Shown: in pieces, positions 1,636-13,022 of the stretch
Position numbering within the stretch: position 1 is the stretch's first letter
Layout of the letters: every line of letters begins with the position of its first letter
Program-made: the position numbers and the translations under genes
Source of the DNA: a virus
Length of the DNA: 17,518 nucleotides
Virus record (IMG/VR): IMGVR_UViG_3300045391_006091
Coordinates: 1 to 17,518 of that record
Reading direction: 5' to 3' (one strand)
The notes under the pieces: model-generated
What the model was told of the DNA's origin: nothing
The model's database searches: none
What the model saw: the letters and a program-made list of their open reading frames with translations, nothing else

Positions 1636-1679
1636 TGAAAAGAAAAATAACCGGTCCAGGTTCTTATCCCTGGACCGGT
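1636..1679 (-). terminator. intrinsic terminator (11-bp perfect stem ACCGGTCCAGG/CCTGGACCGGT, 8-nt loop, then TATTTTTCTTTTCA on the minus strand)
   Basis: Inverted repeat 1650-1660/1669-1679 read directly; the U-rich tract lies 3' on the minus strand; downstream of the 1744..2025 gene. Confidence 0.7.
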
Positions 1680-1743
1680 GCAGGAAGTTTACCGCTCCCG
1701 ACATTTTCTGGCTGCACGGGAGATTGAGTCAGAACACGGGACC

Positions 1744-2025
1744 TTACGGCACTACCTGGCGGCAAATCACCTCGAACCTGTGCATCGATTCGATTACAGC
1801 TCGCGCACCTTGAGCAGCATCAGGATCGTCTTGCCAGCGCTCGGCGATCTTGGTCTCGGTGTCGACCATTCGGCACAGCTCGTCGAAGTGCTGCGCCTTT
1901 CGTTCGGACATTGCCGAAGTTGCTTGGATACGCTCTTCACGACGTTTCCAGCACCAACCCTGAACGACGACCGAGAGCAGCAGAAAGACGATCGCGATTA
2001 GCACGTAGCGGATGGGTATCCTCAC
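1744..2025 (-). CDS. small membrane-anchored protein (N-terminal TM helix YVLIAIVFLLLSVVVQGW)
   Basis: 93 aa. GTG start overlaps the TGA of the upstream 371-aa gene (GTGA). AAGGGG SD lies 5 nt upstream. One N-terminal hydrophobic helix, then a charged soluble tail. Confidence 0.55.
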   Translation of the reverse strand: MRIPIRYVLIAIVFLLLSVVVQGWCWKRREERIQATSAMSERKAQHFDELCRMVDTETKIAERWQDDPDAAQGARAVIESMHRFEVICRQVVP

Positions 2026-10346: not shown

Positions 10347-12947
10347 TCAGGACACCGGCGGCGATGCGACCGGGGTCGACTGCGACTTGCCGTTACCGTT
10401 GCTCAACAGCTTCGTGACGGTACTGGCGAGCGGCGTACCAGCGAACGCCCTGGCGACGGCCTCGCTGACGCTGTCTCCACCCAGCACGCGCTGGATGTTG
10501 AGAGCCTCGGCAACCTTCGTGAGCGTCTCGTTGTTGCTAAGGGACAGCAACGCCTCGGAGAACCCGCCCTGAATCGCAGCGAAACGGGCGGCGACGGACT
10601 TGGCCTCGGCCTCGAGCATCTCGATGGCGAGGTTCTGCCTCTGCTCGGCTTCGAGTTGGGTCTGAGCTTCCAGCGCCCTGTGACGATTCAAGGCCGCAGC
10701 GTCTCGGAGGTCGACGATCGACTCCTGGAGCTTGACGTTCTCGTAGTCGGCCTGGATGCGCTTCGACTCGTTGCTGATCTTGGTGATAGTGAGAGCGAGC
10801 TCATTCACCAGAGCATCGATAGCGAGTTGAGTGGTGATCTGCTTCGTCTCGGCCTTGGTCTGCGCTTCCGAGCGAACCAACTTCTCGGTCTGCTCGGTCA
10901 CTTCGACTCTCCGCTTGTAGCGAGAAAGCTCGATGTTCGAAGAGACGACCTCATGCTGCGCAGTGTCGAGCAGAGCCCGGATCTTCTCGTCCTTGAGCTC
11001 GACTCGCAGGACCTCGACATCGATCACCCGCATGCCGTTCTCGACGAATCGCATGCCTGGGCGCTTCGCTCCATCGGCGGGCTTGCCCAGGATGGTGTCC
11101 CTGATGAGATCGGTGGCATTGGCGTAGAAGTCCTCTGCCTTCTGCTTCTTGACGTAGCCCTTGAGCACCGAGCGGACGTGATCGCACAGGAACTTGACGT
11201 AGTTCTCGACGGCGAACCACTGCGTCGACTCACCCTCGAAGCTCACCTGGTACGAGAGATAGAGAGTGACCTGCACGTGATCGGCCGTTTCTACGCTCAC
11301 GTAGTCGGTGATCTTGTTGTTGTCGACCCGTAGATATACGGTCTTGAGGATGGTGTCCGTGGTCTTGGGCTTGCCCGTCGAGAGCTCGAGGACTTCGAGA
11401 CCCTCGTCGTACTCGAGCAGGATCGCGTTCGGACCCTTCTCGACACGCCGCTTGCCGGTCTTGGAGACGACCATTGCAGCGTAGCCAGTCCAGAGCTCGA
11501 TGATCGGAGCTCCTTGGTACTTGGTGTCTAGCGTCAGCGTGCGGGGCTGCGTGTAGTTCGATGCACGAGAGAACTCGTCACCGACCAGTGATTGATCCCC
11601 GCTGACCCGGCTCGACTCCATGACGGAGGCGTTCGCCGCGTACATCACCTGGTTGTCAGCCAGATGCGAGCTCTTCTCGCGTCCTTCGATACCGCCCTTG
11701 GTTCGCTGCTCCTGCTTCAGGCCACGGCTGACGTCTCCTTCGGAAACAGCACCAGCACGAGTCGTGGGAGAACGCTGGAGGATCGCACGCATGCTGCGGT
11801 TGTACTCGGCAGCTTCGGTGTTGCCCGGATACCACAGGTTGACCTGCTTCTCCGAGAGAACACGACGAACGATCACTTCGGTACGGGGATCGGGCAGCAA
11901 CATCGCCGGGCCCTTGACCATCTTGATCTCGCCGGTGAGGCGGTTCATGAGATAGCGAGCTTCGCCAGCGGGAATCGCCGTGGCGAAGTGCTTGGCCTTG
12001 CCGTCGTACTTGATCGCCGAGTGCTCTTCACGCGGATAGTAGATCTGCGTGTCCTTGCCCGTGATGAAGAGCTCCTCGCCAGCCTTGTACTTGCGGCCGT
12101 TATCCTCGTAGTCGGCGATCACCTTGATGTGAAGACCCTGGATCTCGTTGAGCTCGATCGCACGGAACTTCTTGCTCGGGCGACCTTCGCTGCGATCTTC
12201 CAAGAACCGCTCGGTCGGCTCTGGGAACACGACCTTCGGACCGACTTCGTACCGCTTGTTGCCATCCTCATCGACGAGGATGCAATACTCGAGGCGCTCG
12301 AGAGTGAGTGCATCACGGATGAAGTCATTCCCCTCCTTGACGACCTGGACGCCGGTCGGCGGGATGTAGAAGGAGACGTCGGTGCCCTTGATGATGAGCT
12401 GCTTGCCGATCGTGAGGTCCGTGACCTGCTCGGGAGTGACCGGCTCGGCGGCATCAGCTCCGCTGACCGTCTTCATGATCGCGTTCTTCCAGTTCTTCTT
12501 CGCCTCGTCCTCGTTGTAGACGCTGACGAGGAGATACTGGTTGAAACGGATGTGGTGACCCTGGACCACCTCGGCAGCCTGCCCCGGCCACAGAGCGAAC
12601 GTCGCCGGTCCCGGGATGTTGATCTTGCGGCCCACATCGAGCTCGGGAGGAGTTTGCGCCGAGCCCTCCGAGGGATGGATATTGGTCCCCTTCGCCGGAT
12701 TACGAAGGATCAGGTAGAAGCCCTCATTCGCAACCGGAGCGAGCTCCATGGCGCTGTTGAGGTTGTCCGGCTGATCGAACATGCCGGTTTCGGCGTGATA
12801 GACGACCGGTCGCTCTTGTGCGGTCGGGTTGATCACCGTCGGACCGGTGTACGTCTTGATTTGGCCCTTGGTGACATCCTGCATGTACGCATAGGTGCCG
12901 GGTGGAAGGACCAGGTCTCGCTGCTTGTCTCTCGGTGTCTCGGTCAT
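10347..12947 (-). CDS. mvp: major vault protein (MVP) homologue, 866 aa: MVP repeat domains, shoulder domain, cap-helix coiled coil, cap-ring
   Basis: It aligns with eukaryotic MVP along its length. N-terminal repeats: LPPGTYAYMQDVTKGQIKTYTGPTVI... against [28 protein letters not shown]. Shoulder: LELSTGKPKTTDTILKTVYLRVDNNKITDYVSVETADHVQVTLYLSYQVSFE against LSLSAGRPKRP...[27 protein letters not shown]. Long heptad cap-helix: VIDVEVLRVELKDEKIRALLDTAQHEVV...LEAEQRQNLAIEMLEAEAK. AAGGAG SD lies upstream of the ATG at 12945-12947. Confidence 0.9.
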   Translation of the reverse strand: MTETPRDKQRDLVLPPGTYAYMQDVTKGQIKTYTGPTVINPTAQERPVVYHAETGMFDQPDNLNSAMELAPVANEGFYLILRNPAKGTNIHPSEGSAQTPPELDVGRKINIPGPATFALWPGQAAEVVQGHHIRFNQYLLVSVYNEDEAKKNWKNAIMKTVSGADAAEPVTPEQVTDLTIGKQLIIKGTDVSFYIPPTGVQVVKEGNDFIRDALTLERLEYCILVDEDGNKRYEVGPKVVFPEPTERFLEDRSEGRPSKKFRAIELNEIQGLHIKVIADYEDNGRKYKAGEELFITGKDTQIYYPREEHSAIKYDGKAKHFATAIPAGEARYLMNRLTGEIKMVKGPAMLLPDPRTEVIVRRVLSEKQVNLWYPGNTEAAEYNRSMRAILQRSPTTRAGAVSEGDVSRGLKQEQRTKGGIEGREKSSHLADNQVMYAANASVMESSRVSGDQSLVGDEFSRASNYTQPRTLTLDTKYQGAPIIELWTGYAAMVVSKTGKRRVEKGPNAILLEYDEGLEVLELSTGKPKTTDTILKTVYLRVDNNKITDYVSVETADHVQVTLYLSYQVSFEGESTQWFAVENYVKFLCDHVRSVLKGYVKKQKAEDFYANATDLIRDTILGKPADGAKRPGMRFVENGMRVIDVEVLRVELKDEKIRALLDTAQHEVVSSNIELSRYKRRVEVTEQTEKLVRSEAQTKAETKQITTQLAIDALVNELALTITKISNESKRIQADYENVKLQESIVDLRDAAALNRHRALEAQTQLEAEQRQNLAIEMLEAEAKSVAARFAAIQGGFSEALLSLSNNETLTKVAEALNIQRVLGGDSVSEAVARAFAGTPLASTVTKLLSNGNGKSQSTPVASPPVS

Positions 12948-12982
12948 GATTTCAGTCGCTCCTTGGTTGAAACTGCGTTAAC

Positions 12983-13022
12983 GCAAAAACGAAAGCTACC
13001 AACCACGCTCTTTGAGGTTGGT
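12983..13022 (-). terminator. terminator-like hairpin (ACCAACC/GGTTGGT, 11-nt loop) overlapping the TAG of the upstream ORF, then GCTTTCGTTTTTGCG on the minus strand; also contains the GCGTTAACGC palindrome
   Basis: Read directly at 12998-13004/13016-13022. It sits immediately before the MVP RBS. Confidence 0.45.

Follow-up and report, generated by a model that had tools for sequence, protein, structure and literature searches.

The sequence analyzed here, IMG/VR record IMGVR_UViG_3300045391_006091, is a metagenome contig that represents a piece of an uncultivated phage genome, and all of its 17,518 bases were considered (hereafter the window). Six hairpins at its gene boundaries, numbered S1 to S6, are probably Rho-independent (intrinsic) terminators on the minus strand, which would be the sense strand of a compact phage gene array. 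This strand carries nearly all plausible genes of the window, and the arrangement points to mostly one-directional transcription. An initial annotation had described the hairpins as a recurring unit of stem-loop, C-interrupted T-tract, Shine-Dalgarno sequence (SD), and start codon, and had read them as intrinsic terminators that allow partial read-through with immediate re-engagement of ribosomes. The terminator part of that reading is well borne out: GC-rich sense hairpins with T-tails follow stop codons, their positions are conserved in relatives with divergent stems, and the sense RNA is the more stable one. As far as sequence can tell, everything expected of an intrinsic terminator is present (a stem-loop, a U-tract, a position at gene ends, and a structure kept in relatives), with the S5 stem fitting only loosely. 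The feature is an ordinary one that had been observed correctly, and its novelty lies only in the phage lineage, which is undescribed.

The fold energy of each hairpin was compared with those of 200 shuffles, and at none of the six sites did any of the 200 fold as well; energies ranged from -12.1 to -25.1 kcal/mol and z-scores from -2.8 to -6.7. Folding placed a minus-strand hairpin at every position that the initial annotation had listed, and all six are more stable than the limit of about -8 kcal/mol that it had set. The stems comprise 7–13 base pairs (bp), and all six sites are on the minus strand. S1 (1650-1679; -23.7 kcal/mol, z -6.7) has 11 bp and an 8-nucleotide (nt) loop, and is followed by the T-tail TATTTTTCTTTTC at 1637-1649, the SD AAGGGG at 1631-1636, and an ATG at 1623-1625. 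S2, which follows the gene of an AAA+ ATPase, lies at 4082-4107 (-12.1 kcal/mol, z -3.6) and contains one A.C mismatch; its tail TTTCTTTGCC at 4072-4081 leads to the SD AAGAGGAAA and the ATG (4058-4060) of a gene of 101 amino acids (aa). S3 lies before the same AAA+ gene at 6596-6625 (-21.3 kcal/mol, z -4.5), with the stem core CGCGTCC/GGGCGCG, which includes a G.U pair, and the extension GGAAA/UUUUC, and continues into the tail TTTTCTTTTTC, the SD AAGGAG at 6583-6588, and the ATG at 6576-6578. S4 (9559-9582; -16.1 kcal/mol, z -3.9) is built on the core GAGGGC/GCCCUU and precedes the tail TTTTCTTT, the SD GGGAGGA at 9549-9555, and a likely GTG start at 9543-9545. S5 is a composite hairpin (12990-13031; -14.8 kcal/mol, z -2.8) with a CCAACC/GGTTGG core and an 11-nt loop; it overlaps the upstream stop codon, and the tail TTTTTGC at 12983-12989 and then TTTCAACCAAGGAG separate it from the ATG (12945-12947) of the gene for a major vault protein (MVP) homologue. 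S6, after the MVP gene, is at 10310-10339 (-25.1 kcal/mol, z -5.2), with 13 bp, a UUCG loop, and the tail TTTCTTTTC, so that the whole site spans 10301-10339.

The tails have a recognizable sequence of their own. The window contains six copies of the heptamer TTTCTTT, none of them on the plus strand, compared with 1.31 expected copies, and 0 of 200 shuffles reach six; five of the six copies stand directly 3' of hairpins S1-S4 and S6. The C-interrupted T-tract that had been claimed for all sites is therefore present at these five but not at S5, the weakest site, where TTTCGTTTTTGC stands in place of TTTCTTT and where the tail agrees with the family consensus TTTTGC. The remaining copy (14506-14512) was considered as a seventh site and rejected, as it lies within a conserved plus-strand gene (14495-14797) and is probably due to chance. 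When hairpins of -15 kcal/mol or lower with a good tail (by a TransTerm-style score) were counted and compared with dinucleotide shuffles, four were found on the minus strand and 0.43 in the shuffles, and the plus strand held a single hairpin of -15 kcal/mol or lower, with a weak tail (score 3.8) and within a coding region. On the same TransTerm-style scale, tails at the terminator-like sites score 3.9-4.8. The C of the tail often pairs with a G of the purine run just 5' of the stem, as in S3 and S4.

Placement is equally consistent. All six sites lie 3-110 nt past a minus-strand stop codon, and S2, S4, S5, and S6 begin within 3-40 nt of it and are free of the promoter-like motif described below; from their sequence, these four are predicted to be plain terminators. 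The layout ahead of co-directional gene starts was confirmed for S1 to S5, but S6 faces the end of a convergent plus-strand open reading frame (ORF, 10062-10304). Because the spacers are short (40-110 nt), the U-tail ends only 5-10 nt from the next SD; this closeness is best explained by compaction, and nothing suggests a special mechanism of ribosome re-engagement. The shared junction TTTCAA(C)(C)AAGGRG that had been pointed out was recovered at 1640, 6593, and 12972, and a fourth copy lies at 3718 before a likely start at 3698. A TTT..GGAG junction is also found throughout the family, as the initial annotation had thought worth checking, and TTT..AGGAGG is the usual ribosome-binding context of the family; the T-rich stretch ahead of the SD, which is also seen where there is no hairpin, is thus in part a feature of the ribosome-binding region itself. 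A search for direct repeats found no repeat family covering the hairpins, the recurrence being limited to the tail and the ribosome-binding context, and no Rfam family matched at E <= 1. Repeated palindromes of the REP (repetitive extragenic palindromic) or MITE (miniature inverted-repeat transposable element) type were considered and rejected, as the hairpins have no common sequence.

Comparison with related phages provides much of the evidence for termination. Five syntenic relatives were found via the MVP and AAA+ proteins, namely L001/L005, L002, L006, L007 (with L008), and L009 (with L010 and L011), and together with the window (W) they make up the six genomes referred to below. The source records of the relatives are GCA_013565735.1, JGI 3300062797, GCA_037025325.1, SRR28494093, and ERR3572949. 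In every one of the six genomes, the MVP stop codon is followed by a hairpin with a T-tail (W 10311, L001 12651, L002 12655, L006 5611, L007 6638, and L009 5333), and the same is true after the AAA+ stop codon (W 4081, L001 20491, L002 20356, L006 11994, L007 12202, and L009 12101). The stems at these two junctions cannot be aligned across genomes; MAFFT placed the six post-MVP hairpins, whose stems are unrelated, out of register, and hence there is no formal covariation count at that junction. The order of AAA+ gene, terminator, SD, and small gene is kept in W, L006, L007, and L009, and the small gene itself is homologous in W, L006, and L007 (29-37% protein identity). At the other sites, the 3' arm and tail of S3 (CTAGGGCGCGTTTTCTTTTT) nearly equal those of an L006 terminator that ends at 9777 (CTAGGGCGCGTTTCTTTTT), with 20 nt in common and different 5' arms, which suggests that the 5' arm of S3 was remodelled relative to L006. 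L009 has a terminator and SD at the same junction as S4, after the orthologue of a 138-aa gene (tail at L009 5813), and L002 has a hairpin and T-tail 35 nt ahead of the MVP start, comparable to S5. A terminator that runs straight into an SD and start codon also recurs in relatives (L005 14626; L002 22358; L006 11994 and 17437; L009 5813, 12101, and 17445).

The structures tend to be more stable in the RNA of the presumed sense strand. In a set of 40 family terminators, which are intergenic, on the sense strand, and chosen partly on their tails, the sense RNA was the more stable of the two strands in 31 of the 37 informative comparisons (means of -14.6 kcal/mol for sense and -11.0 kcal/mol for antisense, binomial p = 2e-5), a bias due to G.U pairs of the sort expected in a functional RNA hairpin. 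The tail consensus of the family is YTTC-TTTTGC, and CTTTTGC occurs in 25 sense and 8 antisense copies even though the sense strand is T-poor. Structures on the sense strand that are conserved at gene boundaries, several of them with short tails and genes immediately downstream, are also what would be seen if the hairpins served RNA stability or processing inside a single long polycistronic message, blocking 3' exonucleases or offering endonuclease sites and so setting the half-lives of segments. We consider this very unlikely, given that a U-rich tail of the family consensus stands directly 3' of most stems, where a pure stability element has no need of it, that stems of 7-13 bp are too short for typical RNase III substrates (~20 bp or more), and that a promoter-like motif commonly comes next, which is sensible only if transcription stops there.

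Several observations nevertheless weigh against termination. In a loose consensus scan, terminator-like sites as a whole are not in excess (17 vs 14 +/- 3.9), and only the strong ones stand out. S2 is mismatched (A.C) and folds better on the antisense strand, and S5 has a loose structure with its 11-nt loop. No U-tract runs beyond 4-5 consecutive U, all being short and broken up by C, and termination may therefore be of low efficiency. TTTGC is present in 29 of the 40 family tails, a count inflated by the tail-based curation. Finally, a second class of hairpins, located between the promoter-like motif and the SD, looks alike yet cannot end upstream transcripts where it stands in divergent regions, so that looks alone are no proof of terminator function. 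The first of these points, along with T-rich stretches of the junction type that precede an SD and are free of a hairpin (for example 3718 and L009 12353), could also suggest that the sites are a chance by-product of base composition, in which AT-richer spacers in a GC-rich genome resemble each other through a shared SD. That explanation is barely credible in view of the hairpin z-scores, the number and strand bias of the heptamer, the enrichment of strong hairpins over shuffles, the two junctions whose position is conserved in 6/6 genomes, and the excess stability of the sense strand; it is effectively refuted.

The sequence that commonly follows a terminator in the family has a defined form. 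GGATAAG occurs in 4, 9, and 6 copies in W, L001, and L002, always on the sense strand (~1-1.5 expected), and the extended family consensus consists of an A/T-rich stretch followed by the 18-nt sequence RGGGATAAG-N3-TTGRAG. Matches with both parts (strict core and second half) are on the sense strand in 30 of 30 cases across the six genomes, and relaxed matches to the core alone number 52 sense and 10 antisense. Copies upstream of genes typically stand ~45-55 nt before the start codon, and the motif comes directly after a terminator at L001 20524 and 21740, L002 20388 and 21591, L006 9791 and 12724, L007 12215, and L009 5348. It also occurs, as GGCATAAG or GGGATAAG, in divergent regions (L001 ~300, L002 ~620, and L007 667), which must hold a rightward promoter. 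From this placement, the motif looks like a candidate promoter of an unfamiliar class. A scan for the sigma-70 consensus gave two promoter-like sites (5.6 in shuffles), none of them in the spacers. The motif was also compared by eye with a sigma-70 -35/-10 pair, a sigma-54 site, and the sigma-28 -10 element (GCCGATAA), each of which was rejected for unfit spacing and partner elements. No description of the motif came up in a literature search, and an exact-pattern scan of viral contigs with GGGATAAGAANTTGGAGC returned two contigs of ~38% GC with one copy each, which were dismissed as chance hits.

In the window, a weight matrix trained on the relatives only (95th percentile of shuffle maxima, 13.8 bits) scored highest on the sense strand at 1669 (20.3 bits), 10022 (17.6), 3760 (17.2), and 13703 (13.7), with an antisense maximum of 4.7. 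These matches are all on the minus strand. The best copy (1654-1670) lies in the loop and 3' arm of S1. The copy GGGATAAGGGCTTGAAGG at 10006-10023 is 42 nt upstream of the 138-aa gene (ATG at 9981), after a convergent gene pair, and has an orthologous copy at L007 6826. The copy GGGATAAGGAACTGAACA at 3744-3761 overlaps the stop codon of the 101-aa gene, heads the gene block 3698-1744, and has a positional counterpart at L006 12227. The borderline copy GGGATAAGAGAGGGATGA at 13687-13704 follows the gene of a CHAP-domain lysin, as do its counterparts at L006 1800 and L009 1816.

Many spacers hold a small hairpin between the motif and the SD, followed by 1-5 U-rich bases and AGGAGG. By their position downstream of a putative promoter, also in divergent regions, these hairpins appear to be leader elements and not terminators. 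The window has one such module before a response-regulator (receiver-domain) gene, at 667-721 on the minus strand, with a weak motif GAGATAAGG at 714-721, a hairpin at 683-707 (AUCGCCC/GGGCGAU), UC, the SD AGGAGG at 675-680, and a GTG at 667-669; because it has no T-tract, it was not in the initial list. The hairpin is present at the same place in 6/6 genomes (-7.8 to -11.4 kcal/mol) with different stems, which are AUCGCCC/GGGCGAU in W, ACGCUC/GAGCGU in L001, ACGCAC/GUGCGU in L002, UGCCCU/AGGGCA in L007, and AACGCC/GGCGUU in L009. These stems (alignment A3) were folded one by one, the MAFFT register being inconsistent with the structure. Their loops are pyrimidine-rich in 5/6 genomes (CCCCUUU, CCACCUAUCUU, and similar) and could pair with the adjacent AGGAGG.

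The existence of this class raises the question of whether some or all of the six hairpins are themselves elements of a 5' leader, acting in protection from decay, in tuning ribosome access, or as promoter-proximal attenuators that need an antiterminator. We regard this as unlikely. In its favor, relatives carry a hairpin with TTT(T), AGGAGG, and ATG 5-15 nt downstream of the motif, including in the divergent regions named above (L001 ~300, L002 ~620, and L007 667), where there is no upstream co-directional gene; the receiver-gene hairpin is kept in every genome with different stems; and within the window a motif-like sequence, GAGATAAGAGTTAGATGG (6701-6718, minus strand), lies ~75 nt upstream of S3, and the motif copy 13687-13704 lies upstream of a further hairpin at 13604-13637. 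On the other side, the four predicted plain terminators have no upstream motif and start shortly past a stop codon, and since the S1 motif lies within the hairpin, a transcript begun there would be without the 5' arm. A leader or 5'-end hairpin plausibly fits only S3 and the hairpin at 13604-13637.

For S3, the initial annotation had itself offered a leader attenuator as an alternative. A motif-like copy is indeed present upstream at 6701-6718, but at 9.6 bits it falls below the chance ceiling of 13.8 bits, and no competing antiterminator fold appears in the S3 leader. When 6576-6720 was folded, the minimum-energy and centroid structures both retained the terminator hairpin, and the z-score of the whole leader was -1.84. 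Moreover, the S3 orthologue in L006 is upstream of the motif, which is the position of a terminator. The usual layout in relatives is terminator, promoter-like motif, leader hairpin, and SD; ahead of the AAA+ gene, the motif is found at about -45 in 5/5 relatives, and in L006 the terminator comes first and the motif next. In the window, S3 runs straight into the SD, and the conserved motif is missing there. The bare contact between terminator and SD in the window partly reflects compaction or deletion. An attenuator at S3 is a weak alternative to termination.

The genes at 3698-1744 (197, 371, and 93 aa, minus strand) have no counterpart in any of the five relatives, and in this single case a block is bracketed by motif copies (3744-3761 and 1654-1670) and closed by a hairpin, S1. 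The orthologous spacers of L001 and L002 contain the motif together with a T-rich SD context, but no strong hairpin. It thus appears that S1 terminates an inserted block of three genes and was added to a promoter already resident ahead of the gene at 1625. With the best motif copy of the window inside the S1 hairpin, that gene could be expressed without read-through. In relatives, the AAA+ gene is followed by either one small gene or ~300 nt without a called gene; in L001 (20429-20874) and L002 (20290-20724), this ~300-nt stretch lies between two pairs of terminator and motif, and may represent a small non-coding transcript or the remains of a gene. A more speculative possibility, which we put forward tentatively, is that the family uses a three-part cassette, made of a terminator with a fixed tail, an 18-nt promoter read by a phage-specific or unusual factor or polymerase, and a leader hairpin with a U-rich SD, whose copies double as recombination points for module swaps. 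If true, it would explain why cassettes are found at the breaks in synteny, such as the 3698-1744 insertion and the slot of variable content that follows the AAA+ gene.

Two sites were missed by the initial annotation, both on the minus strand. The first is a terminator-like hairpin at 15168-15191 (-10.2 kcal/mol, z -3.4) with the tail TTTTGCTAG (span 15159-15191), which fits the family consensus and comes directly after a 448-aa gene (stop codon at 15200). The second is the strong hairpin at 13604-13637 (-22.3 kcal/mol, z -5.1) with a TTTTT tail (span 13599-13637), which lies inside the doubtful ORF 13690-13376 and may be a terminator, a leader element, or coding sequence. This ORF (104 aa) overlaps the next well-supported gene (ATG at 13473, with its own SD) by ~100 nt, and the region 13376-13704 holds a second small hairpin besides the one at 13599-13637. 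In relatives, that gene directly follows the motif, so the ~220-nt stretch around 13599-13637 may be non-coding, either a structured leader or an insertion.

Taken as terminators, the sites would work as follows. The 3' arm of a GC-rich RNA hairpin would run into a U-rich tail (YTTC-TTTTGC, in the window usually TTTCTTT), where RNA polymerase would terminate with incomplete efficiency. Terminators placed in this way would close the transcription units around the MVP and AAA+ genes, both highly conserved, as well as those bordering variable blocks, and would insulate the MVP and AAA+ genes as separate units. Read-through of S2 to S5 would feed the followers that have no motif of their own (the 101-aa gene at 4060, the gene at 9545, and the AAA+ and MVP genes), and genes behind a motif would be made from new transcripts. 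For S2, read-through is a reasonable inference, since four genomes share the gene order and leave no space for an intervening promoter. The position of the MVP and AAA+ genes, each between terminators, suggests separate and probably abundant units. The result is a transcription-unit map that can be used for an uncultivated phage lineage with an MVP homologue, GyrB, and an AAA+ ATPase, and the terminator tail and the motif serve as search handles with which further contigs of the lineage can be annotated and transcripts sought in metatranscriptomes. Beyond the map and the handles, the mechanism is a textbook one.

The genes themselves place the window in its family. On the minus strand are the MVP homologue (10347-12947; Pfam MVP_shoulder and Vault_3), GyrB (6999-9122; phrog_543 match), the AAA+ ATPase (4125-6578; phrog_10440 match, E = 3e-111), and the receiver-domain protein (319-669), and the window also encodes the CHAP-domain lysin and many small ORFs without a family. 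The gene order common to the family is lysin, small genes, MVP, small genes, GyrB, one or two genes, AAA+, small genes, and receiver protein. A megablast search of cultured phages with the window DNA gave no match, and AAA+ homologues of 37-42% identity are present in Pseudomonas and Stenotrophomonas phages. Viral contigs queried with the MVP protein yielded no relative, an exact look-up of the MVP protein of the window found no record, and a metagenome scan with the AAA+ alignment returned the L001 contig alone. The phage MVP homologue adjoins GyrB and the AAA+ ATPase, an association kept in the five syntenic phage contigs. Genomes of Kofleriaceae/Myxococcota encode its closest cellular homologues (~58-60% identity), a hint as to the host lineage. 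A 2023 preprint (10.1101/2023.11.10.566534) has already reported viral MVPs. Residues 195-235 of the AAA+ protein match Pfam PF00542 (E = 1.4e-6), the C-terminal domain of ribosomal protein L7/L12. Pfam domains had been precomputed for four AAA+ proteins of the family (window, P0122, P0126, and P0127), of which only that of the window has this stretch; it follows a Cys/His-rich N-terminal region that is itself conserved in the L001 and L002 homologues. The plus-strand gene at 14495-14797, one of only two plausible genes on that strand, encodes a 100-aa protein that every relative shares at 58-66% identity; genomes differ in how the gene is oriented with respect to the main array.

Compared with known systems, the sites are closest in form to canonical intrinsic terminators, with which they share a GC-rich stem-loop, a direct U-rich tail, a location on the sense strand past a stop codon, and upstream purines that pair with part of the tail. 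Unlike canonical terminators, their tails are short and C-interrupted, following YTTC-TTTTGC instead of a plain U7-9, and several end 5-10 nt from an SD. Leaky intrinsic terminators are known inside operons, such as T-phi of phage T7 and the attenuator within rplKAJL-rpoBC; like these, the window sites stand between genes that would be co-transcribed, and partial read-through would set the relative expression of those genes. Leader attenuators and promoter-proximal terminators include the trp type and lambda tR', which is read through by Q. S3 and the hairpin at 13604-13637 resemble them in having a hairpin and U-tail between a possible promoter and an SD, but differ in that there is no alternative antiterminator fold and no match to a leader peptide, riboswitch, or known RNA family, and in that the motif upstream of S3 is below threshold. 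Stem-loops at the 5' end can also stabilize mRNA, as in the ompA leader, and the conserved small hairpin between motif and SD (in the response-regulator leader and several relatives) resembles such stabilizers; the likeness is confined to such motif-proximal hairpins, whose 5'-terminal position is putative, and does not extend to S2-S6.

Tailed phages carry morons and gene cassettes bounded by a terminator and promoter, and the hyperplastic regions of T4-type phages contain promoter-stem-loop (PeSL) cassettes. The motif found here is unrelated to sigma-70 or T4 early promoters, and unlike in PeSL cassettes the hairpins have no common sequence; recombination at cassettes, too, is suggested here by one insertion only. 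In common with morons and PeSL cassettes, variable blocks are bracketed by regulatory signals, a likeness that rests on the single insertion at 3698-1744 (from the motif at 3744-3761 to S1), and the slot after the AAA+ gene likewise differs in content among genomes.

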